A DNA stretch of 64,000 bases from Candidatus Uhrbacteria bacterium (GCA_016219925.1 JACRJU010000003.1:22505-86504); one strand, 5' to 3'. Positions 24,746 to 46,912 are shown, counted from the stretch's first letter. Numbers and translations: made by a program. The notes: generated from the sequence alone by a model not told the origin.

Positions 24746-26580
24746 GCAGTCACCCCTCGATGGACATCGAAGCGATTCGGGCCGCATTTGCCGCGCACCG
24801 CGCCGGCCGCTTCCGCATCGACCACTTTGTCGGCAAGGGCGGCATGGGTACGGTATTCTCGGGATTCGATCGCGAGTTCGACCTGCCATGTGCCATCAAG
24901 GTCGTCAACCTTGAGATGCTCGAACGGCCGGACGTCCTCGCGCGGTTCATGTCCGAGGCGAGGATCATGCGCCGCATTCGTCACGGAGCGGTTGTGCAGG
25001 TCTACGATCTGGACCGTTTGCCCGGGGATCTGCCCTTCATCGTTCAGGAATGGATTGAGGGCGGGAGCCTGTCGGGCTACGTGACAAGTCACGGTCCTCT
25101 GTCGCCGGAGATGGCAATCAACGTCATGGTGATCGTCTGCACGGGCATCGAGGAGGCTCATGCCCAAGGCGTGATCCACCGCGACATCAAGGCCGACAAC
25201 ATCTTGCTCACTCCTGAGGGGTACCCCAAGGTCACCGACTTCGGGATCGCCATGATGGAAACCGGGCGCACCCGTCTCACTCAAGATGGAGCGGGCATGG
25301 GGACGCTCGGCCACATGGCGCCTGAACAGATGCAACAGGCGAAGGATGTGGACGAACGCGCCGATGTGCATGCGCTGGGCGTCACATTGTGGGAGATTCT
25401 GACGGGGCAGAAGCCGCCGCCGGGACTCTTCTTCAGCGTTTCGCTCGACTCCGATCCCTTCTTGCTCAACGGGGTTCCCGATGAACTTGTGGTGATCATC
25501 AAGCGCGCAACAGAGATCAGGCGTGAAGCACGCTACCAGAACGTGGCGGAACTGCGCCTCGATCTCGAGACGGCCCGTCCGTCCTTCAACCGGACAGGCA
25601 GGACACAGCTCACGCACGGCTCCGCGCTGGATTCGACAGTTTCCCAGCCAGCGCTTCCGGTGCCTTCGCCATCGAGCCTGCATCCTCCGACAACCACGCA
25701 GACCCCGCCTGTCGTGAATCCTGTCGCCATTGTGGCGCGCCGGATTTCTCGACCTTCGAGCGCACCGCCCGCTTCGTCTGCTGGTCAGGATGATGACCCC
25801 ATCGCTCTGGCAGACACGCACATGGGCGGTGACGGGCATCTCGCTGATGACGTCAGTGCTCCTCTCGAAGAGGTACAGCGCGCGCGTCGTCGTTCGCAGG
25901 TGCGCTTCGTCGGGATCGTCGCGGCCGCACTGTTCATCGGTGGTCTGGCCGCGTGGGCGTTCATGGGACGTCCTTCTCCGGATTCCACCATACCGGCGGT
26001 TAGCGTGCTTGAGCCCCAGCTGGAGCCCAAAGCAAGTCCTGCAACGCCAGTTCCACACGAGCCCGAGGCCACTGCGCTCCCGAGCACGCGCGCTAGTGTT
26101 GAACCGGCACCTGTCATCCCCACTGAACTGCCGACGAGTCCGACGACTCCGGTCGTTGAAAAGGCACCCATGGTCGAGCCGGTCGCTCCGCACGCGCCGG
26201 ATCGCACGGCCAAATACCTCGACGTGTTGGCGGATCACCACGGCAAACAGGGTAAGCCGATCAAGCCGATCAAGCCGGACAAGCATCACCGCGGCGCCAG
26301 TGTGGATGCTCAAGCTACTGGTCAAGTCAAAGCCTCCGAGCCTGACAACGCGCCAGTGCGCGTGAGTGTCTTTTTCCCAGAAGGCGATTCCATCACAGTC
26401 TGGCTGGTCGGGCCGTCTGGACGCCGGACGCTTCCGACAAGCGTCCCGCCCGGCATCTATAAGGTGGTCGGCGATTTCCCAAGCGGGGAACGCACGGCCA
26501 TCTCCGCGCTCACGATCGAAGCGGGCAAGCCGGTGAAGATCACCTGCATCCCGCAAGTCGTGAAGTGCCACGTCCGCTGA
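24742..26580 (+). CDS. Hanks-type Ser/Thr protein kinase, membrane-spanning, with Pro-rich linker and extracytoplasmic C-terminal domain
   Basis: GKGGMGTVF Gly-loop, AIKVV lysine, HRDIKADNILL catalytic loop, DFG, APE motifs. A TM segment (VGIVAAALFIGGLAAWAF) follows the Pro-rich region. The ORF track's upstream start at 24367 overlaps the preceding gene and is probably spurious. Confidence 0.8.
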   Translation: MSSHPSMDIEAIRAAFAAHRAGRFRIDHFVGKGGMGTVFSGFDREFDLPCAIKVVNLEMLERPDVLARFMSEARIMRRIRHGAVVQVYDLDRLPGDLPFIVQEWIEGGSLSGYVTSHGPLSPEMAINVMVIVCTGIEEAHAQGVIHRDIKADNILLTPEGYPKVTDFGIAMMETGRTRLTQDGAGMGTLGHMAPEQMQQAKDVDERADVHALGVTLWEILTGQKPPPGLFFSVSLDSDPFLLNGVPDELVVIIKRATEIRREARYQNVAELRLDLETARPSFNRTGRTQLTHGSALDSTVSQPALPVPSPSSLHPPTTTQTPPVVNPVAIVARRISRPSSAPPASSAGQDDDPIALADTHMGGDGHLADDVSAPLEEVQRARRRSQVRFVGIVAAALFIGGLAAWAFMGRPSPDSTIPAVSVLEPQLEPKASPATPVPHEPEATALPSTRASVEPAPVIPTELPTSPTTPVVEKAPMVEPVAPHAPDRTAKYLDVLADHHGKQGKPIKPIKPDKHHRGASVDAQATGQVKASEPDNAPVRVSVFFPEGDSITVWLVGPSGRRTLPTSVPPGIYKVVGDFPSGERTAISALTIEAGKPVKITCIPQVVKCHVR

Positions 26581-26608
26581 CGAGGGTCTCATTCCCTCGT
26601 TTTTTTGT
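26580..26608 (+). terminator. Rho-independent terminator after the kinase operon
   Basis: ACGAGGG-TCTCATT-CCCTCGT followed by TTTTTTT. Confidence 0.6.
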
Positions 26609-26655
26609 TGCAAAACCTGCGGCTTTGAGGCATCATTGGGGAGAACCATTCTCCT

Positions 26656-27933
26656 ATGCTCGACATCAAAATCTTGAGAGACGATCCGGAAAAAGTAAAA
26701 CTCGCTTGCAAAAACAAAAACGCGGACGTGGATATCGACCGCGTGTTGACGCTCGACAGCGAGCGCCGTCGTTTGCGTGGAGAAATTGATGAGCTTAATC
26801 AGGAGCGAAAGAAAGCGGCGCAGGCAAAGGACATCGAAGAGGGCAAGCGTCTTAAGGGGTATGGAAGTGAACTTGAGGCGCAGTTGAACGCGATTGAGAC
26901 AGAGTTCACGACGTTGATGCTTTCTATCCCGAACCTGCCAAGCGATGATACTCCAGTTGGCAAAGATGAAGCAGAAAATGTGGTGTTGCGAAATTGGGGG
27001 GAGCCGCCAGAGTTCGATTTTGTTCCAAAAGATCATCTGACGATCGGCAGTGCGCTTGGACTCATCGACAGCGAAAAGGCTGTGCAGGTTTCCGGGGTGC
27101 GTTTTACGTATCTCAAGGGCGCGGCCGTTCTGCTTCAGTACGCGTTGGCTCAATTGGCTTTTTCCGTTTTGACGGATCAAGACGAACTTCAGGCTATCAT
27201 CAAAAAAGCGAAGCTCTCCGTAAGCGCCAAACCGTTTACTCCGGTTGCGCCACCGCTCATGATTCGGCCTGATGTGTTTCAAAAGATGGCGCGTCTGGAA
27301 CCCAAAGAGGAGCGCTATTATATCCCATCCGACGACGCCTTTTTGATCGGAAGCGCGGAACATACTCTTGGGCCGCTGCACATGGGCGAGACGCTCAAAG
27401 AGGCCGAACTTCCAGCGCGTTACGTGGCATTCACACCAGCGTTTCGTCGCGAAGCCGGATCCTACGGCAAGGACACCAAAGGGATTTTGCGTCTGCATCA
27501 ATTTGATAAAGTTGAGATGGAATCGTTTAGCACTCCAGACAATGGTCTCGCCGAGCAGGATTTTTTTGTGGCTTTGCAAGAGCACTTCATGCAAACACTC
27601 GACCTTCCGTATCAAGTCGTAATGACATGTACAGGCGATCAAGGCGACCCCGACGCGCGCCATCTCGACATTGAGACGTGGATGCCGGGGCAGGGGAAGT
27701 ATCGAGAAACGCACTCGGCGGATTATATGACGGATTATCAAGCGCGTCGGCTCAACACGAAAGTGAAGCGCGCGGATGGCTCTTTGTCGTTCGTGCACAT
27801 GAATGATGCAACAGCTTTCGCGGTTGGACGAACCCTGATTGCTATTTTGGAAAATTACCAAAACGCAGATGGCAGTGTGACGGTGCCCGAGGCTCTTGCG
27901 GAACTGGTCGGTTTTGGACTGCTGACGGCGTAG
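26656..27933 (+). CDS. serS: Seryl-tRNA synthetase
   Basis: 425 aa; N-terminal coiled-coil arm; class II motifs (FRREAGS..GKDTKGILRLHQFDKVE, motif 3 GSAFAVGRTLIAILENYQ). Confidence 0.9.
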   Translation: MLDIKILRDDPEKVKLACKNKNADVDIDRVLTLDSERRRLRGEIDELNQERKKAAQAKDIEEGKRLKGYGSELEAQLNAIETEFTTLMLSIPNLPSDDTPVGKDEAENVVLRNWGEPPEFDFVPKDHLTIGSALGLIDSEKAVQVSGVRFTYLKGAAVLLQYALAQLAFSVLTDQDELQAIIKKAKLSVSAKPFTPVAPPLMIRPDVFQKMARLEPKEERYYIPSDDAFLIGSAEHTLGPLHMGETLKEAELPARYVAFTPAFRREAGSYGKDTKGILRLHQFDKVEMESFSTPDNGLAEQDFFVALQEHFMQTLDLPYQVVMTCTGDQGDPDARHLDIETWMPGQGKYRETHSADYMTDYQARRLNTKVKRADGSLSFVHMNDATAFAVGRTLIAILENYQNADGSVTVPEALAELVGFGLLTA

Positions 27934-27971
27934 TGTTATACACATTGCGACAATCGTTTTATAGAGAAAAG

Positions 27972-28000
27972 AAAAATGCGCGTTAACCTCGCGCATTTTT
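27972..28000. terminator. Bidirectional Rho-independent terminator after serS
   Basis: Perfect palindrome AAAAATGCGCG-TTAACCT-CGCGCATTTTT. Confidence 0.65.
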
Positions 28001-28379
28001 GATAGATAAATTTTGTTTATGATTTATAACAGTTTCCAATTTTTACGCTCATTTTAGCTAAAAAATGATTGACAGATAAGCTGTTTTTTGATGTGATGAT
28101 AACAGATCGCAACACACCGAACAGTTCTGTCTTGATCGAAGACGAAGTCGCAGATTATGTGACACACCCTTCAGAAACGGCAACACGGGTCTGTCGGTGC
28201 GATCCAAAACGATGCGCTGAATTGGGAGGCAGAGCATCGGACTCACCCACACGCATGGATTGTTCATCTGTGTGACATGAGTCAACACACTCGCGTCGGT
28301 GCGCGCAGGTCCTCGCGCATCCGGCGAGGAGGTTGACTCAATCTCCTCGTGGCGTTCTTTCAAAACAAGGAGAGCGATC

Positions 28380-30362
28380 ATGAGGTCCACCGGATTTGCG
28401 TTCGTGTACTTCATCCTGATGGTCATCGCTGGTTCGTGCGTGGCCCTGGCCACGTCGTGCGGCACGATCGAAGCGCAGATGGACAGCTCGGGCGTCTATG
28501 GCGACGTCGGCGGCGGTGGCGGACAGGTGGTCATGCATCTGCCGTTCTCCCGCGAGCTCTCGACCGAGTGCGTGCAGGGCGTGAACGGGGCTCACAGCCA
28601 CCGTAGCCGCTCCACGCACTTCGATCTGGACCTCGATACCTCAAACGTGGCCGACGAGCCGGTGTTCGCTCCGGTGTCCGGCATCGCGCGCGTGCACACC
28701 GAAGACCCGTCGCGCAACTTCGGCAACCACGTGAACATCGACAACGGCGACGGAACTTACGTCGTGTGCGCGCATCTGCGCATCGCGGTCGTCAAAGATG
28801 ACCAGGAAGTCGCGCAGGGCGAGCTGATCGGCTACGAAGGATGCACGAGTAACTGTACCGGCGATCATGTGCACATCGGTCTGCATCGTGGCGATGCGGG
28901 CAAGATGGCGCAGATGGGCGAGTCCATCCCGTCGGCGTTCTTCGTCGCCCGCGCCAGCAGCCCGCGCGGGTTTGCCGTTATCGAAGGCAAAGACTTCATG
29001 TGCGGCATCCGCGCCATGGGCGACGATCGCGACGGTCTGTTCTACAGCTCCGCGCTCGACACGCCTCTGTTCCATCCCAACGGCTCGCTCGTGAAGCTTG
29101 CGCTCGACCCGCGGGTGTATCGCATCGACAACGGTCTGGTGCGCCACATCGCAAACGAAGACGTGTTCCGCAGTTACAGCTACACCTTCGAAGATGTCGC
29201 TCTGATCTCCGATGAGGAGATGACTTGTTACGGGGAGGGGAGCGAGATCAGCGAGCACGGCATGGTCAACGCGGTCAATGGTCCGGATGGTGCGCTTTGG
29301 CTCGTAGTCGGCATGTGGGACAGCCCGGCTCGTTACCGCATCCGTATCCGTCAGCAGGGTTGGGAGCAGGTCGTGCGCTCTTGGGGACTCGAGTATGACG
29401 GCATGGATGTCCCCCTTTTCATCGATGTGACTCACGGGTACTGGGTGCATTGGAACGAACGCCCGGGGTATGCGAAGTTTCGCGATGGCACGCTCGTGAA
29501 GGAACGCCGACGCTCGGACATCTACGTCATCTCCGACGGGGTGGCCGTGCCGATCCGCGACTGGGAGACCTATCTCTTGCTCGGCTTTGCCGATCGGACG
29601 TTCCTGACGGTCGGGCCCGGAGTGGTCGCGCAGGTGATGGGATCGGTGGGAAGCTGTAACGGTTCGAGCTGGTGCTTGGATCGGGAGGCGGCGTTCATCT
29701 GCGCAGGAGGATTCGATGGTGAGCCTCCGGCTGACAACACCAAGCCGGGTCCCTCTTTGGATGAAGGCACCGCGCCGCAGGCGCATAGCCCACCGGACAA
29801 CTCCGTACCTCAAAACTCCAACATCCCCGCTCAAGACGACAACCGAGGCGGGACTCAAAATGATCCGTCCGCCGACCCGTCCGAGTCGACACCTCTCGCG
29901 CAGTCCTGCGAAGGCCGTGTGGGGTGCCTCATCGATGCTCGCGGTATCGGCATGGCGCAAACCCTTGCGCTTTCGGATCAGCTCTGGCTGGATCCTGCGA
30001 GCACGAGGTGGGACGCGTACCTGTACGGCTACGGGGACTGCTTCGACAGCTACCCCGACGGCCATCAAGTGATCCACTCCATCGGCGGCTTCTACCAGAT
30101 CGACTTCTCGAGCATCAATCGTTCGTGCACGATGCTCATGACCCTCATCTCCTCGATCGGAACGGACGGCTTGCCGCCCGATGAGCAGATGTCGAACTGG
30201 AATTGGTGGCAGAGCGAGACCTTGTGTCGTCCGGGCACCCCGATCTGCAACCTCATGAACAACGGAACTTCTTGGGAAGCGTGGCTGTTGTCGCTCGCGT
30301 GGGATCCGCAAACGGGTCTGACCGCAACCGGCAACGCGCTGACCAGCAACGCGCAACTCTAG
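28380..30362 (+). CDS. M23 family (LytM-like) metallopeptidase, secreted/lipoprotein-like, with about 450-aa C-terminal extension
   Basis: Start chosen at the ATG with an AGGAG RBS (the ORF track begins 81 nt earlier). Signal sequence FILMVIAGSCVALATSCG; HxxxD (HFDLD) and HxH (GDHVHIGLH) M23 motifs; about 64% GC against a background of about 50%, and the composition switches abruptly at the stop codon. Confidence 0.7.
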   Translation: MRSTGFAFVYFILMVIAGSCVALATSCGTIEAQMDSSGVYGDVGGGGGQVVMHLPFSRELSTECVQGVNGAHSHRSRSTHFDLDLDTSNVADEPVFAPVSGIARVHTEDPSRNFGNHVNIDNGDGTYVVCAHLRIAVVKDDQEVAQGELIGYEGCTSNCTGDHVHIGLHRGDAGKMAQMGESIPSAFFVARASSPRGFAVIEGKDFMCGIRAMGDDRDGLFYSSALDTPLFHPNGSLVKLALDPRVYRIDNGLVRHIANEDVFRSYSYTFEDVALISDEEMTCYGEGSEISEHGMVNAVNGPDGALWLVVGMWDSPARYRIRIRQQGWEQVVRSWGLEYDGMDVPLFIDVTHGYWVHWNERPGYAKFRDGTLVKERRRSDIYVISDGVAVPIRDWETYLLLGFADRTFLTVGPGVVAQVMGSVGSCNGSSWCLDREAAFICAGGFDGEPPADNTKPGPSLDEGTAPQAHSPPDNSVPQNSNIPAQDDNRGGTQNDPSADPSESTPLAQSCEGRVGCLIDARGIGMAQTLALSDQLWLDPASTRWDAYLYGYGDCFDSYPDGHQVIHSIGGFYQIDFSSINRSCTMLMTLISSIGTDGLPPDEQMSNWNWWQSETLCRPGTPICNLMNNGTSWEAWLLSLAWDPQTGLTATGNALTSNAQL

Positions 30363-30410
30363 CGCATCTCCTGTGCACAACATCTGTGCGCAGGTTTTTC
30401 GTTTTTCTGT

Positions 30411-30416
30411 TATAAT
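30411..30416 (+). promoter_or_regulatory. Candidate -10 box (TATAAT) 10 nt upstream of the VirB6-like ATG (leaderless or very short leader)
   Basis: TATAAT at 30411-30416 preceded by direct repeats TCTGTGCACAA/TCTGTGCGCAG; no convincing -35. Confidence 0.25.
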
Positions 30417-30426
30417 TTGTGCAGTT

Positions 30427-33369
30427 ATGAAGCACATTTTCACGCGCATATTTTTGGCGGTACCACGATTGAAGGAGCGTCTGCGCAGTGTGTTAAGCCG
30501 TCCTAAAAACAAAACGGTTGTTTTGACATGTGCCATTCTTGCGGGGACGCTTCTCATTTTGCATCCCGCTTACGCTCTCGGTTTGCCCACAGGAGATGAC
30601 ATCGCCGGAGTCATCGCCTCTATTGCAAACCTGTTTGCCTCTTTGCTCGCTGGCCTCATCACACAGGTGATCGCTTATCTGATTCCGGTGATGCTTTACA
30701 ACAATTTTTCCAACTCGCCTGTCGTGACACAAGGCTGGGCGCTTGTGCGCGACACGGTGAACATGTTTTTTGTGATTGTTTTGATCGTGATCGCGCTTGG
30801 AACGATCTTTGGTCACAAGAAATTTCAATGGCAAACACAAGTTCCGCGCCTTCTCCTCTTTGCGATCGTCATCAATTTTTCTAAAACGCTCGCCGGTATC
30901 ATGATTGACTTCGGACAAGTGGTGATGCTCACGTTTGCCAACGCCCTGCGCGAAATTGCAGCTGGTAACATCATAGAGATGTTCGGTCTTAACAAAGTTT
31001 CCGCATTCACCCCGACAGCCGCGGCCTTCAATCCCACATCGAGCAAGCCTGGCACCAGCGCATGGGATTTGGCATTTGCAAGCCTTGCTGCGGTTTTCAT
31101 CCTGTCTTGGGTGTTGGTCATCATGTTGCTATTGTTTGCCATTTTGTTGTATCGCATTGTCGCGTTGTGGGTTCTCATCGTCCTTGCGCCACTTGCGTGG
31201 TTTGCCGGCGGCGCGGAAATTCTTGGAAGCAGTGCCTATGCTGACTGGTGGAAAAATTTTAAGTGTTTGGTAGCGATCGGCCCCATCGTGACATTTTTTC
31301 TTTGGCTCGCTCTTGCTGTAGCTGGCGCGGCAACGGAAGGATTTGAATCCAGCACCGCTGGCAATCCTGCCAGTTTCTTAACGCAAATTTTTGAATTTCA
31401 GCATTTCATGGGTTTGGTTGTGGGTTCGGCGATGCTTATGGCCGGAATGCAGACCGCTCAACAATTTTGTTCGGTACTGTCTGGAAGTGTTTTGGGCAAA
31501 GCCTTGGGCAAAGCCGCCGCTTTTGGTCCTGGGGCTTTGAGTTTTGGAAAAGGAGCCGCATTAAAAACGACAGGCTGGGGAGCGCGCAAAGTTGGTGGGG
31601 CCGTGAGGGCGGGAGGGCGTGCTGTGGCTTCCTACGGTGGCGCATGGGCGGAAAACAAGAAAGGGCTACGTTTGTTGACTACGCGCGGTCGTGCAGAAAA
31701 ATGGCGCGAGGTTGGGCAATCTTCGGGAAAAGGCGTTTGGGGCAAGACGGTCGGAGTTTTTGCACAACGCCGGGCTGAAGCGGGATACGCGCCGCGCCAT
31801 GAAGAAATTGCAAAAGCAGGGGAGAAGTACAAGAAAGACAGCACGGGCACCAAGATCGCACAGCTTCAACGCTTCGAGCAGACAGGAGCCAAAACTCTTG
31901 GCGGCAAGCGCGAGGCCCAGTCGCTCTTTAAGGATATGCTTGGCGATAAGGACATGCTCAAGAAATATGAAGAGTCTGGTGGCGATGTGAAGGCGTTGTG
32001 GGGCAAGTTTGGAAAGTCCATGGAGCAGGATTTCAAAGGAGATGCGGGGACGCTCGATAAGCTCGCGGGCTTTAAGAAAAAGTATGCCCATGTCACTGGC
32101 TCTTCGAATGATTTGAAAACGTTTGATGATTTCAATGATCTATCCAATCAGGCCGTGCTTGATAAGGACGTTCGTGCTCGCATGGCAAACGCGAAGGTAG
32201 AAATCAAACGCAAAGGCAAACCGGCCGAGGTGATGACAGCCGCAGACGCCGCAGAAAAGGGTTATTTTGGCGCAGACAAACAGGCGTTGTTTAAGGGCGG
32301 ACATGGCGCGCTCGATGATGAACAATTGCGTCGGGCGGACATCGGATCGGTTGTCCAGAATGCCCCCTTAGCCACGACCAATCGCGCGGCCAATTTGGCG
32401 TTCCAAGACAAAAATGTTGGTCGCGTTGGTGAGATTGCTTCATCGCTTCTTGAACAATACAAAAAACCAGACACCACGGATGCGAAGCGGTTTGAAATCG
32501 CGGGGGCGCTTGATAGCCTTAAAGCACAATTGGCCCAGCAACTTTCTTCGGGACAACTCAAAGGGGCTTATGCGAAACAGCTTAAGAGTTTAGACAAAAC
32601 GCTTGATGCGGATCGGGCCGGCGCGGAATCGGCGGCGGGACGCGTTGGATCGGATGGGAAGCCGGTTGGTTCGAATTTTGGCGCCATACCCAAGATCGCT
32701 CAACAAGCAGATCCTTCCGCCTTTATTAAGGCAAACTTTGCAAACGCTTCAGACGCGCGTGTGACGGATGCGAAGGCTCAACTTGGCGGAGAGCTCAATC
32801 AAAAAACAGATGAAGTCTATAAACATTTTCAGGGCATGGTTGGGGCCATTGAGGCGAAGAAAGGTTCGTTAAGCGCAGAAGCGCAAGGGATTCGCAAAGA
32901 GGTGGATGGACTTTGGGATCAATTTAAACAAGTGCGTAAAGCTTCTGAAGATCGCGCCAAAGCCGAAGCAGGCGGTTTGCGCGTGCAGGCACAATCAAAA
33001 CAGAAGGATATTGATCGCAAAGAGGATGATTTCTCGCGTGCCGCATCGCGTGGGGCTGACATTGGAGAATTGTCGAGCATTCGTCAGAGTCTTGATGCCT
33101 TGCGTGCGGATAAAGCCAATCTAGAACATCAGGCGAGTACGGTTGAAAGTTCGGTGGATAAAGATCCACAAGTTATCTCAATCAAGCAGGAGATTGAAAT
33201 CAAAGAACGACAGTTCTCTGAAACGCTTGCTCAAAAGGATGGCATCAGGGCTGATGATGACGAAGCCGCAAAAGCTTTCAAGGATGCCATGGCGCAGTCA
33301 GAGGAAGAAAAACGAAAACTCGAAGAAGCTCTTGCCGCTCTTGAAGCTCTGAAACCGCCTCATGCCTGA
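30427..33369 (+). CDS. VirB6/TrbL-like polytopic membrane protein with long charged coiled-coil C-terminal domain (T4SS-like cluster)
   Basis: About 980 aa. A signal peptide plus roughly 7 TM helices in the first 360 aa, then a K/E/A-rich hydrophilic region of about 600 aa. First gene of a co-directional, overlapping-gene cluster containing PrgI-like and VirB4 genes. An alternative start at 30373 is possible. Confidence 0.5.
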   Translation: MKHIFTRIFLAVPRLKERLRSVLSRPKNKTVVLTCAILAGTLLILHPAYALGLPTGDDIAGVIASIANLFASLLAGLITQVIAYLIPVMLYNNFSNSPVVTQGWALVRDTVNMFFVIVLIVIALGTIFGHKKFQWQTQVPRLLLFAIVINFSKTLAGIMIDFGQVVMLTFANALREIAAGNIIEMFGLNKVSAFTPTAAAFNPTSSKPGTSAWDLAFASLAAVFILSWVLVIMLLLFAILLYRIVALWVLIVLAPLAWFAGGAEILGSSAYADWWKNFKCLVAIGPIVTFFLWLALAVAGAATEGFESSTAGNPASFLTQIFEFQHFMGLVVGSAMLMAGMQTAQQFCSVLSGSVLGKALGKAAAFGPGALSFGKGAALKTTGWGARKVGGAVRAGGRAVASYGGAWAENKKGLRLLTTRGRAEKWREVGQSSGKGVWGKTVGVFAQRRAEAGYAPRHEEIAKAGEKYKKDSTGTKIAQLQRFEQTGAKTLGGKREAQSLFKDMLGDKDMLKKYEESGGDVKALWGKFGKSMEQDFKGDAGTLDKLAGFKKKYAHVTGSSNDLKTFDDFNDLSNQAVLDKDVRARMANAKVEIKRKGKPAEVMTAADAAEKGYFGADKQALFKGGHGALDDEQLRRADIGSVVQNAPLATTNRAANLAFQDKNVGRVGEIASSLLEQYKKPDTTDAKRFEIAGALDSLKAQLAQQLSSGQLKGAYAKQLKSLDKTLDADRAGAESAAGRVGSDGKPVGSNFGAIPKIAQQADPSAFIKANFANASDARVTDAKAQLGGELNQKTDEVYKHFQGMVGAIEAKKGSLSAEAQGIRKEVDGLWDQFKQVRKASEDRAKAEAGGLRVQAQSKQKDIDRKEDDFSRAASRGADIGELSSIRQSLDALRADKANLEHQASTVESSVDKDPQVISIKQEIEIKERQFSETLAQKDGIRADDDEAAKAFKDAMAQSEEEKRKLEEALAALEALKPPHA

Positions 33370-34999
33370 CGTCCCAACTCAACGGCAACTGTCAAAGGAA
33401 GTCCGAGATTATTTTCTCTCGGATGACGTTTTTGCGCAGTATGAAAGAATTGCTGGCGATTATGGATTAAATCAGGAGGAAGCTGTTTCGAGTCTTTCCG
33501 CGCTTGTGTATCAGTTTGTGGCTGGAGTTTTTCCGCTCGACACCCTGCTTAGGAAGATCCAAATGGAGTTTTTGCTCACCACGCCGCGCGCGCAGGAATT
33601 GTTGTCGGCGGTTTTTTTGTACGTCGTCTCTGCCGTCGCGGATCAAGTCAGCGGGCTTTCGCAGGCCCTTGTAGATTGGAAATCCTCTGCGCCACAGGAG
33701 GAAAAAATGACGCCACGCGCTTTCATTCGTCTTTATCTGTCTTCCATTCCAGATCGACTGGATCCGGTTGAGGAACATCGTTTGGAAAATATCTTGTCTC
33801 TTTATCTCCAAGGGGTTCGTTCACGCGAAGAGACGGTCGCTTTTCTTCAAAGACCTCATAAACTCGGCGGCATGGAGATGGAGCAAGATGATGCTATTGA
33901 AATGTTGGCGGAGTTTGAGTTGCGAAAACAGGCCGTCGTTTTTTCGGATGAGATCGAACCCCCTACACCCTCTACCGTCTCCACACCCCCTGCTGTCTCT
34001 ATACCTTCTGCTCCTGCGCTCGATGTTTTTTCCTCAGACGATGCCGAAGAAGTCGCTCATCATGCTCAAAAAGACGCATCCCCATCTTCAAACACCATCT
34101 CGTTGAGCGCCGACGAGCTTTTAGCACGTATCTGTCAAAATGATGCATTTGTTTTTTCTGATCCGCAAAAGCAAAAACGCTGTCAGGAAATTGTGTCCGC
34201 ACGCGTGCGGGATGTGCGTGACGCGTTTCAAACGCGCGCTCTTCTTGAGCAATCAATAGATCAAGGGGGTCTTGGGATTCACGGTCTTCAGCTGGCTCAG
34301 ATGGTTGAGCAAATTGAGCAGGTGGTGGATGCCCAACAACGCGAGTCACAAAAAAATCTTGAGCAAGAGCGCACGGCGTCTTCAGAGCAAAAAAAACAAA
34401 AACAACAAATACAAGATCAGCTTCGCATCAAAGAAGAGCAAGTGCTCGCAAAGCGATATGTTCAGACGACGGGACAACTGCCGACAGAGCCCGTAGCTCC
34501 AGCCGCGCCTCCCTTGGCTCGTGCATCCGCTGCGTTTTCGCCCCAAGCGCAAATCGAAAAACAAGAAGCTCGTGTGGACGCGCAGAAAGTACGCGCTATT
34601 GTGCAGAAGGCCGCTTCAGCTCAACCTCTGCCAACACCTCCCCCCGCGCCGCGCGGTCGCGTTCAGGATATTCAGATGAGTCATCGACTTTCTGGACCTT
34701 TGGAAGAACTTGGAAGCATGGATCTCACCGCTTTTCGCCGTTTATCGCATGAGCCCGCGCAAGCCGCTTCGCGGTTAATGGATTTGGTGGGGTTGCTTGA
34801 AAATCAAAGTTACGAAAAGCGTGTTGAAGGGATTAAAATGTTAAAGCGGTCGCCTTTAATGCACGTGTATGCCTCCGTGACGCAGAAGGCTCTTCTGGGT
34901 GGAAAATCTGTTGATGAGGTATTGTCACAAGATCTCCAAGGGTTGAAGCTTGCCGAGTATCAAGCGCTTATGGAGGTAAACGCATCTTTGCGATTCTGA
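33362..34999 (+). CDS. Hypothetical protein (Pro-rich segment plus Q/K-rich coiled coil), T4SS-like cluster
   Basis: 545 aa; 8-nt overlap with the upstream gene; no recognisable catalytic motif. Confidence 0.4.
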   Translation: MPDVPTQRQLSKEVRDYFLSDDVFAQYERIAGDYGLNQEEAVSSLSALVYQFVAGVFPLDTLLRKIQMEFLLTTPRAQELLSAVFLYVVSAVADQVSGLSQALVDWKSSAPQEEKMTPRAFIRLYLSSIPDRLDPVEEHRLENILSLYLQGVRSREETVAFLQRPHKLGGMEMEQDDAIEMLAEFELRKQAVVFSDEIEPPTPSTVSTPPAVSIPSAPALDVFSSDDAEEVAHHAQKDASPSSNTISLSADELLARICQNDAFVFSDPQKQKRCQEIVSARVRDVRDAFQTRALLEQSIDQGGLGIHGLQLAQMVEQIEQVVDAQQRESQKNLEQERTASSEQKKQKQQIQDQLRIKEEQVLAKRYVQTTGQLPTEPVAPAAPPLARASAAFSPQAQIEKQEARVDAQKVRAIVQKAASAQPLPTPPPAPRGRVQDIQMSHRLSGPLEELGSMDLTAFRRLSHEPAQAASRLMDLVGLLENQSYEKRVEGIKMLKRSPLMHVYASVTQKALLGGKSVDEVLSQDLQGLKLAEYQALMEVNASLRF

Positions 35000-35042
35000 T
35001 ACAATGGAGAGAAGAAAGTAGCAAAGGAGTAAAATAACAGAT

Positions 35043-35474
35043 ATGCCCGATCAGTTCGTTGTTCCACAGTTTATTGATGCCGAAGATAAAATTTTCGGGC
35101 CGATCACGGCTCGGCAGTTTATTATTCTCATGGTGACCGGGCTGATTGACTTTGCGCTTTTCAAACTATTTTCATTTGTGACGTTTCTGCTTATTGGCAT
35201 TCCGGTCATCATCATCGGCGGGACGTTTGCCTTCGGAAAAGTGAATGGACAGGTTTTTCATTACTTCATGTTGAATCTCATCCAAACCGCAAAGAAACCG
35301 AAACTCCGTGTCTGGGAGAAAGTTTACAATGATGCAATATTGCGGTCGTATATTAAAGAAGAGATTCCTCCTCCGCCACCCCCTCCGCCGCATAAAGCGC
35401 CGATCTCTACATCGCGCCTTAATGAGTTGACGTTGGTGGTGAATACGGGCGGAGTGTATCAACCGGAGGAATGA
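35043..35474 (+). CDS. PrgI/VirB3-like small membrane protein
   Basis: 143 aa; N-terminal VPQFIDAEDKIFGPITARQ (PrgI-family signature KIxGPxTxRQ) followed by two TM helices; poly-Pro tract PPPPPPPPH; overlaps the next gene by 4 nt. Confidence 0.55.
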   Translation: MPDQFVVPQFIDAEDKIFGPITARQFIILMVTGLIDFALFKLFSFVTFLLIGIPVIIIGGTFAFGKVNGQVFHYFMLNLIQTAKKPKLRVWEKVYNDAILRSYIKEEIPPPPPPPPHKAPISTSRLNELTLVVNTGGVYQPEE

Positions 35475-36169
35475 GATTTATGCCCGAAATGCAATCCAAA
35501 AAACTGGCAAAATCAAAGCCGGGTCCTGCGACCACGACCTATCTTGATATTTCGGAGATTCGTGATGACATGGTCATTCTCAAAGACGGCACCGTGCGCG
35601 CAGTCCTTTTGGTTTCAAGCATCAACTTTGCGCTCAAGTCCGAAGAGGAACAAGAGGCGATCATTCAGGCCTACATGTCTTTTCTTAACAGTCTCGAATT
35701 CTCTTTGCAGGTGGTCATTCAATCGCGCCGCATGAACATCGATGCGTATATGGCCGCTTTGGGTGAACAGCAACGCAAAACGCAAAACGAACTTCTGCGT
35801 GCGCAGATTGCAGATTATCGAACATTCGTTGAGGAATTGGTTGAACTCGGTCAAATCATGCAAAAGCGATTTTATGTGGTGATGCCCTATGATCCGCTCA
35901 CCAACAAGAAGAAGAATTTTTGGACGCGGCTTGGAGAAGCGATGTCGCCCGCGGCCTCGGCCAAACTCAACCAAAAACAGTTAGCGGATCGTATTGAACA
36001 GCTTTCGCGACGCGTGGAAATCGTGCAAGGTCAGCTCAATAGCATGGGACTCAACAGCGCGCGCTTGGATACGCAAAGTCTGATCGAGCTCTATTACAAT
36101 GCCTATAATCCAGATGTTTTTGAAACAGAAAAGATGGCGGAACTTTCGGAGTTTCAGTTCGAATCATAA
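35471..36169 (+). CDS. VirB4 N-terminal-domain protein (stand-alone)
   Basis: 232 aa; DISEIRDDMVILKDGTVRAVLLVSSINFALKSEEEQEAIIQAYMSFLNSL...RFYVVMPYDP matches the N-terminal domain pattern of Gram-positive VirB4 (TrsE/PrgJ-type). Separated from the ATPase ORF by a TAA stop and a 2-nt gap in a different frame. Confidence 0.5.
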   Translation: MRFMPEMQSKKLAKSKPGPATTTYLDISEIRDDMVILKDGTVRAVLLVSSINFALKSEEEQEAIIQAYMSFLNSLEFSLQVVIQSRRMNIDAYMAALGEQQRKTQNELLRAQIADYRTFVEELVELGQIMQKRFYVVMPYDPLTNKKKNFWTRLGEAMSPAASAKLNQKQLADRIEQLSRRVEIVQGQLNSMGLNSARLDTQSLIELYYNAYNPDVFETEKMAELSEFQFES

Positions 36170-36171
36170 GT

Positions 36172-38271
36172 ATGCCGATTGACATAGGAGCCCTCAAACA
36201 AAAAATGCCCACTCCGCCGCCGGTGAAGCCTAAACAGGTCAAACCGGAGGAGGCGCGCGTGCAGAAAGAACGCGAAGCGCTGGAGGAGGAACGCATTTAT
36301 CGCAAAGGTGTCGTGACCGTGAAAGATATTATTTCACCGGCCGCTTTTGAAGTTCTCCCACGCTCTTTGCGGCTCAACGGCATGTTTTTACGGACGCTCT
36401 TTATCATCAACTATCCGCGTCACATCGGATTGAGGTGGTCATCACCGCTCATTAATCTCAACAAGACGTTCGATGTCGCCATGTTTTTTTATCCGATCAA
36501 GGCCAACATCATCTTAAAACAGCTCCAAAAGAAGGTTGGTGTTTTGGAGGCTGGGATTTTTGCGGGCGCAGAAAAAGGCGCGCCGCGCGACCCGCTTTCC
36601 GAGACGGCCCTGCGCGATGTAGAAGCCTTGCGCGATGCGCTGACTCAAGGCATTGAGCATTTTTTCCAGTTCGCGTTTTATGTGACGATTTACGCGACGT
36701 CCGAGGAAGAGTTAGACCGTTACACCAGTGAAGTCGAAGCGATTTTTGGCAGTAAGCTTATCTACACGAAAGCCGGATTTTATCAGGCAGAGCAGGGGTT
36801 CAATTCCACCATTCCGCTTGGCAACGATGAGTTGATGATCAATTACAACATGAATACGTCGCCGATCGCGGCGTCATTTCCGTTCATTAGCTCCGATCTC
36901 ACTTCCGACAACGGTATTTTGTACGGTATCAACCGCCACAACAACTCGCTAATTTTATTTGATCGTTTCAGCTTGCAAAACGCGAACTCGGTCGTATTCG
37001 CGACCTCCGGCGCGGGAAAATCATACACGATCAAACTTGAGATTTTGCGTTCGCTCATGATGGGAGTGGACGTCATTGTGATTGACCCTGAGATGGAATA
37101 CAAACATCTTTCCGATGCGGTCGGCGGAACTTACATCAATGTCTCGCTCGCTTCAGATGCGAAAGTGAATCCCTTTGATCTTCCGCGCGCGGTCGGAGAG
37201 GGGACAAAAGTTGATGATATTATTCGAAGCGCCATTATCACCCTCAAAGGACTTTTGCGCATCATGATCGGGACGCCGATTGGTGAACAAGGGAAATTGG
37301 GATTCACGCCGGAGGAAGATTCTGTTCTTGATCGCGCGCTCATCGAGACTTACGCCAAAAAGGACATCACCCCTGACTTGATCTCGCTTGCCGACGTGGA
37401 GGCGCCGATCATGCAGGATTTTCAAGATGTGCTCGAAGGCATGGAGGGGGCCGAAGCGATCGTGGCTCGTTTGAAAAAATTTACCGAAGGGACGTTTTCG
37501 GGACTGTTAAATTCTCCGACGACAGTGCAGATGAATAACCAGCTCGTGGTGTTTTCTGTCCGCGATTTGGAAGACGAGCTCCGGCCGGTCGGCATCTATT
37601 CGATCGTGAATTACATTTGGAATGTGACGCGATCGGAGCGCAAGAAACGCGTGTTGGTGATTGATGAAGCGTGGTGGCTGATGACGAACGAAGATTCGGC
37701 GAAGTTTATTTTCGCGCTCGTGAAGCGCGCGCGAAAATACTACTTGGGGGTGACCACGATCACGCAAGATGTCAACGACTTTTTGCGTTCGCCATACGGT
37801 CAGGCGATCGTGACCAACTCCGCGATGCAGGTTCTCCTTAAACAGTCGCCGTCGGCTGTGGATAATGTTCAACAGACATTTAACCTGACGGACGGTGAAA
37901 AATATCTTTTACTGGAGTCGGGAGTAGGGGAGGGGATCTTTTTTGCCGGACAAAAACACGCCGCCATCAAAATCGTCGCTTCTTATACGGAAGATCAAAT
38001 CGTGACAACCAATCCGCAACAGTTGCTCGAAATTGAACGGGCGAAAAAAGAATTTGAAGAACAAGAGACGGCCGCGGAAGCTGGCGAGAAAACGTCGAAA
38101 CCTCCCGCGGGTGGACAGGTCGGTGGGGAACAGGCCGATCGTGCGGATGAAGCGTTCGATATCGAAAAAGAAGCCAAAGAGGCGCAAAATACCGCCGCGG
38201 CCAAGCTGTTGAATCAAGAACAAGTCGGCGAAGCGGAAGCTCAAAAAATTCGTGATTCTCTTCAAGTATGA
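36172..38271 (+). CDS. VirB4/TraC/TrsE-family type IV secretion ATPase
   Basis: 699 aa; Walker A FATSGAGKSYT, Walker B with VirB4 hallmark VLVIDEAWWLM, ITQDVNDF motif; N-terminal region FLRTLFIINYPRHIGLRW typical of Gram-positive VirB4. Confidence 0.85.
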   Translation: MPIDIGALKQKMPTPPPVKPKQVKPEEARVQKEREALEEERIYRKGVVTVKDIISPAAFEVLPRSLRLNGMFLRTLFIINYPRHIGLRWSSPLINLNKTFDVAMFFYPIKANIILKQLQKKVGVLEAGIFAGAEKGAPRDPLSETALRDVEALRDALTQGIEHFFQFAFYVTIYATSEEELDRYTSEVEAIFGSKLIYTKAGFYQAEQGFNSTIPLGNDELMINYNMNTSPIAASFPFISSDLTSDNGILYGINRHNNSLILFDRFSLQNANSVVFATSGAGKSYTIKLEILRSLMMGVDVIVIDPEMEYKHLSDAVGGTYINVSLASDAKVNPFDLPRAVGEGTKVDDIIRSAIITLKGLLRIMIGTPIGEQGKLGFTPEEDSVLDRALIETYAKKDITPDLISLADVEAPIMQDFQDVLEGMEGAEAIVARLKKFTEGTFSGLLNSPTTVQMNNQLVVFSVRDLEDELRPVGIYSIVNYIWNVTRSERKKRVLVIDEAWWLMTNEDSAKFIFALVKRARKYYLGVTTITQDVNDFLRSPYGQAIVTNSAMQVLLKQSPSAVDNVQQTFNLTDGEKYLLLESGVGEGIFFAGQKHAAIKIVASYTEDQIVTTNPQQLLEIERAKKEFEEQETAAEAGEKTSKPPAGGQVGGEQADRADEAFDIEKEAKEAQNTAAAKLLNQEQVGEAEAQKIRDSLQV

Positions 38272-38852
38272 TGGTGACTCGCAAAACACGCCTTATCGTT
38301 CTTGGTTTAATCGCGTTGGTTCTCTTGTTGTTAATCGTTTGGCTCTTCTTGTTTTTAAGAAGGCCGTCTGCCACACCAGCGTCTTCCGAGCCGGTTCTAA
38401 CGGAAGATCAAAAACACATTCCGGAGATTTCTCAACCGACGCTAAAAGATGAGGAACTGAAGAAGGAACAGCAAACGCGAGAAGTTTCCGTGGGAGCCAC
38501 GACGCTTGCTAAATTGTTTGCCGAGCGTTACGGCAGTTATTCCAATGAGGCCCACTTTCAGAATTTGTTTGATGTCATGCCTCTGATGACGGAAAGTTTT
38601 GCCCAAAAGACGAAGGCTTTTGTTGCTTCAACCACTTTACCTGATACGTATTACGGGGTATCGACGCGCGTGTTGACCGTGAAGGTTGAAGCGCTTGATG
38701 ATGCGGCAGGAACCGCAACGATTAGCATGCAAACGCAACGCGAAGTGGCACAAGGGTCTACGCAAAATGTAAACGTTATGTATCAAGAGATTCGTTTGTC
38801 GCTTGTGAAGCAGGCTGGCGTATGGAAGGTGGATTCAGCGGATTGGCAGTAA
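38268..38852 (+). CDS. Bitopic membrane protein, possible VirB8/NTF2-like T4SS component
   Basis: 194 aa; N-terminal TM (LIVLGLIALVLLLLIVWLFLFL) plus a soluble domain of about 150 aa; ATGA overlap with the VirB4 stop. The VirB8 assignment rests only on size, topology and gene position. Confidence 0.3.
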   Translation: MMVTRKTRLIVLGLIALVLLLLIVWLFLFLRRPSATPASSEPVLTEDQKHIPEISQPTLKDEELKKEQQTREVSVGATTLAKLFAERYGSYSNEAHFQNLFDVMPLMTESFAQKTKAFVASTTLPDTYYGVSTRVLTVKVEALDDAAGTATISMQTQREVAQGSTQNVNVMYQEIRLSLVKQAGVWKVDSADWQ

Positions 38853-38854
38853 CA

Positions 38855-38948
38855 AGACCTCTGCAAAACTCGCGATCTTTGCTCTCACGGGCACCCGTTG
38901 ACCCCACTTTCCCTTTTGAGCAAATTTCATCGAGTTGTGCAGAGGTCT
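38855..38948. repeat. MITE-like repeat element copy 2 (terminal inverted repeats AGACCTCTGCAAAACTCG / CGAGTTGTGCAGAGGTCT)
   Basis: Shares the terminal inverted repeats and the internal CGCGATCTTTGCTCTCACGGGCACCC with the copy at 6705-6830; located between the VirB8-like gene and comF. Confidence 0.6.
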
Positions 38949-38969
38949 TTCACGAAAGCATGGCCATGG

Positions 38970-39647
38970 ATGGTTGAAGCGCTATTCCCACGCTTTTGTT
39001 TGGGGTGCCATCGGGAAGGAACCGTGTGGTGCGAGACTTGTTCACAGACGTGGTGGCCGTTGGGGACGCCTTCGGGGTGTCCTTTTTGTAATCGATCTGG
39101 AACGGGCACAACGTGCGTTGATTGTCGGCCGTCGGTTTTTTTGGATGGGTTGAGTGTTTTTGCTTCGTATGGGAATCCGGTTGTTCGCGAAGCAATCGGA
39201 CAATGGAAGTATGTCGGTGATTCTGCGGTGCGTCCGGTGATACGCGAGTGGTTGTTGCGCGCCGCGCCGCGCATGTGTCCGCCCCGTGTGAGCGAAGCAG
39301 TCTGTGCTCCCGTGCCCCTGCATATTTCAAAACGTCGCGCTCGCGGATTTGATCAAGCGGGAGAACTTACGGATTGGTGCGCGGAGATTTTTTCCGTGCC
39401 GGCGTATGATCTGTTGGTGCGTCGGTCATCGAATGTTTCGCAAGCGCATCGTACGCAGGGTCAGCGCGCGGTAGGCGAATTGGATCATCTGTTTAAGATC
39501 CGTGCGGCGATTGATGTTCTGCCGCAAAGGGTGATTTTGTGTGATGATGTTTTTACTTCTGGAGCGACGATGGACAGCGCCGCGCGTTGTTTGAAGGAAG
39601 CAGGTGTCTCTGAAGTTTGGGGATTCGTCCTGGCCAAAGGAGGATAG
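38970..39647 (+). CDS. comF: ComF family protein (ComFC; phosphoribosyltransferase domain, DNA-uptake associated)
   Basis: N-terminal 4-Cys zinc finger (CLGCHREG...CETC; CPFC...CVDC) and PRTase motif VILCDDVFTSGATMD. The probable start is the ATG at 38970, because the ORF-track start at 38898 lies inside the repeat element. Confidence 0.85.
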   Translation: MVEALFPRFCLGCHREGTVWCETCSQTWWPLGTPSGCPFCNRSGTGTTCVDCRPSVFLDGLSVFASYGNPVVREAIGQWKYVGDSAVRPVIREWLLRAAPRMCPPRVSEAVCAPVPLHISKRRARGFDQAGELTDWCAEIFSVPAYDLLVRRSSNVSQAHRTQGQRAVGELDHLFKIRAAIDVLPQRVILCDDVFTSGATMDSAARCLKEAGVSEVWGFVLAKGG

Positions 39648-41679: not shown

Positions 41680-41773
41680 TGGCGGAGAGGGAGGGATTCG
41701 AACCCTCGCGCCGGGAAAACCCCGACCTACAGGTTTAGCAAACCCGCCCCTTCAGCCTCTTGGGTACCTCTCC
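41680..41773 (-). tRNA. tRNA-Ser (GCT), type II with long variable arm
   Basis: The reverse complement gives GGAGAGG acceptor/CCTCTCC, anticodon loop TTTGCTAAA (GCT), a long variable arm, T-arm GGTTCGAATCC, and CCA encoded. Confidence 0.85.
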
Positions 41774-41882
41774 GTGTATAGAACATCCAAAATTTGCGCC
41801 AATTCGATGGCATCGACTTTGCATCAAATTTCGGATGTCCTTATCTTTAATTTCAATGAACTTCTAGAAAGGTGATTCTCTG

Positions 41883-41970
41883 TGGCGGAGGGGGTGGGGC
41901 TCGAACCCACAAGCCCTTGCGGGCGCTAGTTTTCAAGACTAGTTCCTTAACCAATTCGGAGCACCCCTCC
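41883..41970 (-). tRNA. tRNA-Ser (TGA), type II
   Basis: The reverse complement gives GGAGGGG...CTAGT-CTTGAAA-ACTAG (anticodon TGA), a variable arm, GGTTCGAGCCC T-arm, and CCA encoded. Confidence 0.85.
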
Positions 41971-41974
41971 GTGT

Positions 41975-42463
41975 CTATTTACCATAGTGTTCCTCGGCAT
42001 GGCAATTAGGACAGATTAATTCCAGATTTTTAAGATCATTATGTTTTCGATCTCGATTTATGTGATGCACATTTAGAATTTTTTCGTTGTCGTAACCGCA
42101 TCTTTGACATTTTTTTCCTCGTTCATCCATGAGTCTCATTTTGAGTCCCTTTTGATAAATGACTTTATCTTTTGGACGATTCAGCTTGTAAAGGAGTCCT
42201 GTCCTTTGCTTATTAGCACAACGTCGGCTACAGGTTTTTTTGTTAGCTCCCGCCAGGATCGGTGTTCCACAGATAGTGCAAGGTTTTTCCTTTCTGCATG
42301 AAATTCCATAGCAGCGGGCACTGCAAAATGCGTTTCCTTGATTTTTGTGCAACTCGACAGGTCTTCTGTATATAGATTTATTACAGATGCGACAGACCGT
42401 ATTCGGATGACGTTGGTGTACAAGCATAAGGCTAGTATACCAGGAGATGCTGTTTTTTTTCAT
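41975..42463 (-). CDS. HNH endonuclease with multiple CxxC zinc ribbons
   Basis: 162 aa; four or more CxxC pairs and a C-terminal HNH motif NVHHINRDRKHNDLKNLELICPNCHAEEH; GGAGAGG RBS; directly adjacent to the two tRNA-Ser genes. Confidence 0.7.
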   Translation of the reverse strand: MKKNSISWYTSLMLVHQRHPNTVCRICNKSIYRRPVELHKNQGNAFCSARCYGISCRKEKPCTICGTPILAGANKKTCSRRCANKQRTGLLYKLNRPKDKVIYQKGLKMRLMDERGKKCQRCGYDNEKILNVHHINRDRKHNDLKNLELICPNCHAEEHYGK

Positions 42464-42583
42464 TCTTTCGCCACCTCTCCCTGGCTGGACGTGGCCAGAG
42501 TACGTGATTTGCCGATTATCCGCAAGGGTTGTTCATGCGGTTTGTCTTGTGACCTCTTGTCGGGGATGCTAAAATAAAGCGGT

Positions 42584-43096
42584 ATGGACGAAGACATCAT
42601 GGAACCGCCGGCAGAGGATATAGATATTGGGGATCCTTTGCTTGCGTGGGAAGTGGATGAATATCCCAAACACCAACGATCCAAAACGTGGTACGTTTTG
42701 GCTTGCCTCGTTGGCGTAGCTTTGATTGTGTACGCCATTGCCACAGCAAACTTTCTTTTTGCGGTGATCATTTTGATGATCGGTGTCATCATGCTCCTAT
42801 CGAGCTTCAAAGAGCCGGATCGTATTCCTGTTGTGATTACCAATACCGGCGTGCTCATTGACGACACTTATTATGATTACGATCACGTCCGAGATTTTTC
42901 CTTGATTTATGATCCTCCGCACTCGAAACTTCTTTACATCGATTTTCATTCTCGGCTTCAGCCAATTTTGCCGATTCCTCTTGAAGACACGGATCCGAAT
43001 GAAGTCCGTCGCGCGCTCTTGCCGTTTTGCGCTGAAAACCTCAAGCGCAATGAAGAACGATTGACAGATATTGCGCGTCGGATGTATAAACTCTAA
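42584..43096 (+). CDS. Hypothetical two-TM membrane protein with cytoplasmic C-terminal domain
   Basis: 170 aa; acidic N-terminus, two TM helices (VLACLVGVALIVYAIA / FLFAVIILMIGVIMLL). Confidence 0.4.
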   Translation: MDEDIMEPPAEDIDIGDPLLAWEVDEYPKHQRSKTWYVLACLVGVALIVYAIATANFLFAVIILMIGVIMLLSSFKEPDRIPVVITNTGVLIDDTYYDYDHVRDFSLIYDPPHSKLLYIDFHSRLQPILPIPLEDTDPNEVRRALLPFCAENLKRNEERLTDIARRMYKL

Positions 43097-43112
43097 CGAA
43101 ACATTATTTTTT

Positions 43113-43133
43113 GCGCTCGTAGCTCAGTTGGAT
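43113..43133 (+). repeat. Duplicated 5' half (acceptor plus D-arm) of tRNA-Arg followed by a GATCTGAT/ATCAGATC hairpin
   Basis: GCGCTCGTAGCTCAGTTGGAT matches the first 21 nt of the intact tRNA at 43202 (one mismatch). Confidence 0.6.
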
Positions 43134-43201
43134 CTGATAGAATCAGATCACATCGCCTTGCTCGGAAGTGAAATAATGTCCATTCTCGTTTGCTCATTCT
43201 T

Positions 43202-43278
43202 GCGCTCGTAGCTCAGCTGGATAGAGCGTCAGCTTGCGGAGCTGAAGGCCGCAGGTTCAAGTCCTGCCGGGCGCACCA
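43202..43278 (+). tRNA. tRNA-Arg (anticodon GCG)
   Basis: Cloverleaf: acceptor GCGCTCG/CGGGCGC, D-arm GCTC-AGCTGGATA-GAGC, anticodon stem TCAGC/GCTGA with loop TTGCGGA (GCG), T-arm GCAGG-TTCAAGT-CCTGC, CCA encoded. Flanked by a 16-19 bp inverted repeat (43170-43185 / 43288-43303). Confidence 0.8.
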
Positions 43279-46911: not shown

Positions 46912-46912
46912 A

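Follow-up and report, generated by a model that had tools for sequence, protein, structure and literature searches.

What kind of machine is encoded by a run of type IV secretion system (T4SS)-like genes that ends in comF? The question is raised by a stretch of DNA of 64,000 nucleotides from a Candidatus Uhrbacteria bacterium (GCA_016219925.1 JACRJU010000003.1:22505-86504; one strand, 5' to 3'), hereafter called the window, in which positions 30,427 to 39,647 carry seven such genes. A conjugative element, a device for DNA import and a translocon acting at contact with a host bacterium all had to be considered. Our analysis indicates that the locus is very probably a chromosomal T4SS of the Patescibacteria in the arrangement of class ABY1, with comF as terminal gene, and that it is not a conjugative element. 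Two proteins encoded in the window are 100% identical to the Candidatus Uhrbacteria proteins HZA85_00550 and HZA85_00570, whose contig measures 99.5 kb, and Uhrbacteria belong to class ABY1 in the dataset of a recent survey (PMC12102498). The system has already been published, and the locus is a real, well-preserved, clean and complete ABY1 example of it, not a new system. The seven genes are as follows (aa, amino acids; TM, transmembrane).

30427-33369, plus strand: extended VirB6-like channel protein, 980 aa, with a polytopic N-domain joined by a Gly/Ala/Lys-rich linker to a hydrophilic, charged tail of about 510 aa
33362-34999, plus strand: conserved soluble protein, 545 aa, always between the VirB6-like gene and prgI
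35043-35474, plus strand: PrgI/VirB3-like protein, 143 aa, two-TM hairpin
35471-36169, plus strand: TrsD-like protein, 232 aa, the VirB4 N-terminal domain as a separate gene
36172-38271, plus strand: VirB4 ATPase of the MPF_FATA/CD1110 type, 699 aa
38268-38852, plus strand: VirB8-like bitopic protein, 194 aa, predicted N-terminal TM helix and NTF2-like domain
38898-39647, plus strand: ComF (ComFC-type), 249 aa, zinc ribbon and phosphoribosyltransferase (PRTase) domain

An earlier note, made from the sequence alone, had described these genes as co-directional and mostly overlapping. All seven were confirmed on the plus strand at the coordinates it gave, and three junctions are indeed overlaps (8, 4 and 4 nt), whereas at the other three the genes are separated by 43, 2 and 45 nt. 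At 9 nt past the comF stop codon a convergent gene starts, so that comF marks the end of the co-directional run, and it is probably co-transcribed with the T4SS genes. At the other end, a GTG at position 30373 could serve as an alternative start of the VirB6-like gene. This codon is contained in a terminator-like hairpin (30370-30394) that follows the gene for an M23 peptidase, and we therefore preferred the ATG at 30427. A scan for promoters and terminators returned counts no better than those of shuffled sequence, and from it only this one hairpin was used, for the choice of start.

To place the locus among its relatives, we scanned species-representative genomes with VirB4 and obtained 80 loci with 69-87% VirB4 identity. 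Most of these best genomic relatives bear Patescibacteria- or ABY1-type names, those that are informative being Uhrbacteria, Magasanikbacteria and Falkowbacteria; a good many titles are generic or wrongly labelled, but the synteny of the loci agrees with the same clade. The order VirB6-like gene, 545-aa gene, prgI, trsD, virB4, VirB8-like gene and comF is colinear in the 80 loci. The same neighbourhood in 80 species-level genomes, at this degree of VirB4 divergence, points to vertical inheritance rather than mobility.

The encoded parts correspond to a monoderm (MPF_FATA-like) translocon. The 143-aa PrgI-like protein, which contains two hydrophobic segments, matches PF12666 with E 2.6e-9 and 37.9 bits, above the cut-off of 27, and its gene is present in 77 of the 80 loci. 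The VirB4 ATPase matches the CD1110 family model NF045971 at positions 173-730 with 334.5 bits against a cut-off of 325. It also matches PF19044 (E 1.9e-28) and the solved VirB4 C-domain in PDB entry 4ag5 (E 7e-45), and its 699-aa translation contains the Walker A motif GAGKS as well as the Walker B motif DEAW that the earlier note had singled out. The 232-aa protein encoded just upstream is TrsD-like (NF041427, E 1e-7) and aligns to N-terminal positions of VirB4 models, namely 91-233 of VirB4_plasma (E 1.7e-12) and 22-119 of the CD1110 model. Since the two proteins match complementary N-terminal and later positions of VirB4 models, together they correspond to one VirB4, and the N-domain protein that had been proposed at this site is borne out.

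Such a split could have arisen from a frameshift or pseudogene formation. This explanation was ruled out, because TrsD adjoins virB4 in 79 of the 80 loci and is a separate open reading frame (ORF) of 224-270 aa wherever its ends can be delimited. In one locus (L077, 2299-9740) trsD and virB4, elsewhere adjacent, are separated by an insertion of about 7.4 kb.

Searches of the 194-aa protein against Pfam, NCBIfam and PHROGs gave no significant match. Its AlphaFold model, made with 40 homologues (predicted local distance difference test, pLDDT, 88), consists of a TM helix and an NTF2-like domain. When this model was compared with the PDB by Foldseek, the best matches had E-values from 8e-5 to about 1e-3, with CagV at the top (7.8e-5), the VirB8 domain of PrgL next (1.6e-4) and TrwG/VirB8, TcpC and TraE also among them. 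With E-values in this range, unrelated enzymes are matched as well, through the general NTF2 fold. With VirB8 homologues as top PDB matches, the predicted helix and fold favor the VirB8-like bitopic protein that had been suggested, and its gene is found in 71 of the 80 loci.

The first gene of the run was the hardest to assign. By hydropathy, residues 1-355 of the 980-aa protein contain six or more hydrophobic helices, whereas the tail (residues 471-980) is hydrophilic, with 32% charged residues by composition. Pfam, NCBIfam and PHROGs yielded nothing significant for the protein itself, and Pfam found no match when 13 close homologues were added (14 sequences). A profile search with the N-domain gathered a family of 18,650 cluster representatives, the best 150 of which are mostly 800-1100 aa long; among 49 homologues, three matched TrbL (PF04610, best E 3e-4), the sole Pfam family to be matched more than once. 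Taken over all ORFs, then, the family searches that the earlier note had called for matched PrgI and VirB4, reached TrbL through these three homologues only, and returned nothing for VirB8. The AlphaFold model of the 980-aa protein is of moderate quality (pLDDT 66). Foldseek aligned it to TrwI with a probability of 0.91-0.93, but with E-values of 0.18-0.37, which are not significant, and comparison of the N-domain profile with the single PrgH sequence of pCF10 detected no similarity (probability 0.2). We accept the protein as VirB6-like at the level of its predicted fold only.

This protein had been described as a VirB6/TrbL-like protein fused to a charged coiled-coil domain of about 600 aa. 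The predicted VirB6-like fold and a charged tail, of about 510 aa, agree with that description, but a crude heptad heuristic found coiled-coil-like sequence over only about 100 residues, all inside the last 170 or so. The same heuristic found almost no coiled coil in the 545-aa protein, so that the label "coiled-coil protein" given to the second gene is loose at best. The 545-aa protein has no TM segment by hydropathy, and searches of Pfam, NCBIfam, PHROGs and PDB sequences returned no match; a word-indexed homologue search gave only 10 matches, among them one uninformative Pfam entry. Nevertheless it is present in 76 of the 80 loci, with two conserved modules (residues about 270-320 and about 435-545) separated by variable linkers rich in Pro and Gln. 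Of the two, the C-terminal module alone can still be recognised in L082 and L084, which are distant loci.

The last gene was correctly called as comFC. Its product matches TIGR00201 with E 1.7e-17, below the curated cut-off of that model, and the PRTase family PF00156 with 28.8 bits against a cut-off of 26.3. The double zinc ribbon PF18912 was matched with E 2.9e-5 and 24.3 bits, just under the cut-off of 27, and CxxC motifs are visible in the translation; a PDB sequence search with ComF gave no match. In order to count flanking genes, we used only loci with enough sequence, that is, at least 1.5 kb downstream for comF and at least 9 kb downstream for recG, radA and the pilin fusions described below. 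By this measure 70 of 70 loci have comF as the next gene after the VirB8-like gene, and the six loci without ComF all terminate at a contig end. The estimated ComF start lies between -139 and +106 nt from the VirB8-like stop codon. ComF itself is only 23-59% identical across these loci, which argues that its adjacency to the block has survived long divergence. A conserved VirB4-ComF linkage, which the earlier note had proposed to look for by neighbourhood comparison, is thus very strong within this clade. It does not extend to the lineage of L082 and L084 (VirB4 65% identical), where the VirB8-like gene is succeeded by the gene for a 141-aa membrane protein instead of comF and the cluster is interrupted by housekeeping genes.

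The surroundings of the run contain further genes that may belong to the system or are often linked to it:

11884-12588, plus strand: membrane protein with thrombospondin type 3 (TSP3) repeats, 234 aa
12590-22219, plus strand: giant exported protein, 3209 aa, with an N-terminal TM or signal segment
28299-30362, plus strand: membrane-anchored M23 peptidase (PF01551, E 1.6e-13; N-terminal hydrophobic segment)
43536-45587, plus strand: recG (Pfam RecG_wedge, DEAD and Helicase_C)
45637-46926, minus strand: radA (Pfam AAA_25, ChlI and Zn-ribbon)
46913-48202 and 48210-49733, minus strand: two paralogous secreted pilin-domain/hydrolase proteins (PF18895 with PF13529 and PF01510)

None of these flanks is as constant as comF. 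Among the 53 loci with sufficient upstream sequence, 29 have the M23 peptidase gene immediately before the VirB6-like gene and 22 have SerRS, whereas RecG and RadA are each found in 23 of 40 and the pilin-hydrolase fusions in 18 of 40. Since these flanks vary, comF can be regarded as part of the invariant block in this clade. The M23 peptidase is a candidate for the cell-wall hydrolase of the system, in the role of VirB1.

The VirB2-like domains in the window are not free pilins. They occur in the two hydrolase fusions of about 430-510 aa that lie 8.6-11.5 kb downstream, each with a signal peptide, a Cys-rich N-domain, a T4SS_pilin (VirB2-like) hairpin and a C39-like peptidase or Amidase_2 domain. 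PF18895 (T4SS_pilin) was matched in one of them with E 1e-9 and 38.7 bits (cut-off 26.6) and in the other with E 8.9e-6 and 26.1 bits, just below the cut-off. Such fusions, which follow radA where they are found, depart from the usual sense of a "VirB2-like pilin". A DsbA gene (49737-50393, minus strand) adjoins them.

The giant 3209-aa protein has no Pfam match. Homologues of it and of the TSP3 protein are encoded directly upstream of the VirB6-like gene in nine loci, and the order in L082 and L084 is KsgA, TSP3 protein, giant protein, VirB6. Both are probably accessory surface proteins of the system, as their positions suggest, and relative to that order the window seems to contain about 8 kb of inserted sequence (22.2-30.4 kb) that separates the giant gene from the T4SS genes.

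The wider context is chromosomal. Housekeeping genes in the window encode NusA, YidC, GroEL, a release factor, KsgA, SerRS, RecG, RadA, ClpB, TyrRS, PheS and three tRNAs. The tRNA-Ser genes lie 2 kb beyond comF, and an HNH endonuclease gene (41975-42463, minus strand) is located between the two tRNA-Ser genes and a tRNA-Arg gene (41680-43278). The GC content is 0.60-0.64 over 24000-30400, compared with about 0.50 elsewhere; this region covers a Ser/Thr kinase gene (24367-26580) and the SerRS and M23 peptidase genes. Two long antisense ORFs there (24739-27996 and 28641-30557; 1085 and 638 aa) were attributed to the high GC content and rejected as spurious, given that Pfam domains are found in the ORFs on the sense strand.

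Having identified the parts, we compared the locus with T4SSs described in the literature. The closest counterpart is the T4SS of the Patescibacteria, whose VirB4 proteins form a monophyletic clade within MPF_FATA; TrsD, PrgI/VirB3, VirB6 and VirB2-like proteins are widespread among them and relaxases are rare (PMC12102498). VirB8 homologues are almost confined to ABY1 (PMC12102498), and ABY1 loci commonly contain comF, recG and radA (Quinonero-Coronel et al. 2025, PMC12102498). The locus studied here shares with these a chromosomal, MPF_FATA-derived virB4, a separate TrsD and PrgI/VirB3, VirB6-like and VirB8-like proteins, together with PF18895 domains nearby (in hydrolase fusions, not free pilins), the absence of a relaxase, comF, recG and radA in the locus and KsgA in the vicinity. 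We found no essential difference. The layout of the VirB6-like protein likewise belongs to a known class, that of extended VirB6 proteins with at least five hydrophobic helices and a large C-proximal hydrophilic domain (2025 review, PMC12857230), although its tail has no detectable relative outside the Patescibacteria. The novelty that the earlier note had claimed for the ComF linkage and the VirB6 fusion therefore does not hold, both having been published in these two papers.

In Southlakia epibionticum ML1, epibiotic growth depends on the T4SS cluster, in which neither a relaxase nor a coupling protein is encoded (Wang et al. 2023, PMC10633639). Its TrbL/VirB6-like protein has domains annotated to residue 1085, and the cluster also encodes an NTF2-like protein, a 998-aa protein, PrgI and VirB4. 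The gene order in ML1 (extended VirB6-like, NTF2-like, 998-aa, PrgI, small protein, VirB4, wall hydrolases) recalls that of our locus, a likeness of order and annotation only. The comF gene of ML1 is found two genes past the cluster, with tRNA-Ser after it, reminiscent of comF and tRNA-Ser in the window. It stands outside the operon, with a divergent hsp20 in between, whereas here it comes directly after the VirB8-like gene. In addition, the NTF2-like gene of ML1 precedes virB4 and six free VirB2-like pilins are arrayed within the cluster, unlike the pilin domains here, which are fused to hydrolases 8-11 kb away.

More distant are the Prg/Pcf system of pCF10 and the Trs system of pGO1. They have the same VirB4 (CD1110 type) and PrgI families, PrgL resembles the predicted fold of the VirB8-like protein, and a separate TrsD gene occurs here as in the pGO1 subclass. 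The pCF10 order PrgH-PrgI-PrgJ(VirB4)-PrgK-PrgL also parallels the order VirB6-like, PrgI, VirB4 and VirB8-like in our locus. However, these systems reside on plasmids, encode the relaxase PcfG, the coupling protein PcfC and surface adhesins, and lack pilins, while our locus is chromosomal, has a much longer VirB6 and an attached comF, and has neither relaxase nor coupling protein. The ComB T4SS of Helicobacter pylori is similarly VirB4-based and free of relaxase and coupling protein; it differs in being a diderm machine (VirB2-10 and ComB11) that delivers DNA only to the periplasm, and in that comFC is not in the ComB operons. Orthology to CedA/CedB or ComB2-10 was not supported, since CedB scored 44.7 bits against a cut-off of 700, CedD scored 21.6 bits and no VirB7, VirB9 or VirB10 was found.

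Could the cluster nevertheless be an ordinary or decayed integrative and conjugative element (ICE) of Gram-positive type, with a relaxase and a coupling protein just outside it? Its VirB4, PrgI and TrsD families are those of conjugative plasmids and ICEs of Firmicutes, and the earlier note had itself recognised a Gram-positive-type VirB4 machine, a view that the family matches uphold. However, Pfam and NCBIfam scans of plausible ORFs of at least 200 aa in the 64-kb window found no relaxase, coupling protein (VirD4), VirB11 or integrase family, the first three of which had been noticed as missing beforehand; in pCF10, both the relaxase and the coupling protein are encoded within 12 kb of its VirB4 gene. 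The cluster is flanked by housekeeping genes, the same block and neighbourhood recur in 80 species-level genomes, and the GC content of the cluster (0.49-0.53) equals the window background. We thus rejected the ICE explanation, which is highly improbable: the locus is not a conjugative element, classical or otherwise, because relaxase and coupling protein are lacking nearby and its neighbours are housekeeping genes.

The other explanation, a machine repurposed for DNA uptake as the earlier note had suggested, starts from comF. On this account the ABY1 T4SS was co-opted for uptake of host or environmental DNA, like H. pylori ComB or archaeal Ced; incoming DNA, as a single strand, would be taken over by ComFC on the cytoplasmic side and then processed by RadA and RecG. 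There is a precedent in H. pylori, where the ComB T4SS feeds a ComEC/ComFC route in which ComFC handles incoming single-stranded DNA (PMC13395361). It would also fit the terminal position of comF in every locus that extends far enough, amid flanks that vary, as well as its tight spacing from the VirB8-like gene and an adjacency that outlasts the divergence of ComF itself. So would recG and radA nearby, which were also reported for ABY1 (PMC12102498), and the window holds no relaxase or coupling protein for DNA export. Evidence from ML1 points the other way. There, SEML1_0006-0019 scored as growth-defective or essential, whereas comF (SEML1_0021), two genes from the cluster, was non-essential at all three time points (ML1 supplementary tables), which weakens the case for a machine that works through ComF. 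Deletion of comEC in ML1 likewise abolished competence and left viability intact (PMC12102498, PMC12857230). Moreover, we saw neither comEC nor comEA nor dprA in the window, the L082/L084 lineage has its small membrane protein in the place of comF, and the CedB match reflects generic VirB4 similarity. Collectively, we consider a co-opted DNA-import machine unlikely. A DNA-import role in ABY1 is possible, if speculative; direct participation of ComF in T4SS-mediated import of nucleic acid seems doubtful, and its most specific form, in which the T4SS is a contact-dependent device for "reverse conjugation" from the host with ComFC as dedicated receiver of single-stranded DNA and RadA and RecG as downstream processors, is quite improbable. 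The linkage of comF probably represents an inherited neighbourhood or co-expression, with ComF not being a working part of the machine.

We return, then, to a chromosomal Patescibacteria T4SS. By analogy with solved T4SSs, VirB4/TrsD hexamers may dock on a membrane platform of PrgI with the VirB6-like and VirB8-like proteins and power the assembly of a VirB2-like pilus or of a channel through the wall. The wall would be opened locally by hydrolases, among them the M23 peptidase and possibly also the fusions with pilin domains, and the pilus or channel would act at contact with the host bacterium. The host-dependent function that it would serve is most likely protein export or pilus-mediated contact, as has been proposed for the essential Saccharibacteria homologue. 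Several points weigh against this interpretation. Placement of the locus in the published VirB4 clade is suggested by its nearest relatives only, and the VirB6-like assignment depends on a model of moderate pLDDT, a weak sequence signal and non-significant Foldseek E-values. Finally, the invariance and tight spacing of comF exceed the conservation of any other flanking gene, which argues for something beyond neutral synteny.

With the Patescibacteria T4SS, a type IV system has for the first time been shown to be essential for the bacterium that encodes it. To the published picture, which is unchanged, our analysis makes modest additions: fold-level support for the VirB6-like and VirB8-like proteins, which largely escape sequence profiles; the quantification of comF as an invariant terminal gene across 70 species-level genomes; and two further conserved partners, the 545-aa soluble protein and the giant exported protein. 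The remaining interest lies in the question of the substrate and in the ABY1-specific coupling to comF. If the reverse-conjugation proposal were true, the T4SS would supply nucleotides or genes to organisms that are unable to make nucleotides. The VirB6-like and VirB8-like parts, comF and the 545-aa and giant proteins provide concrete targets for asking whether the system handles DNA.

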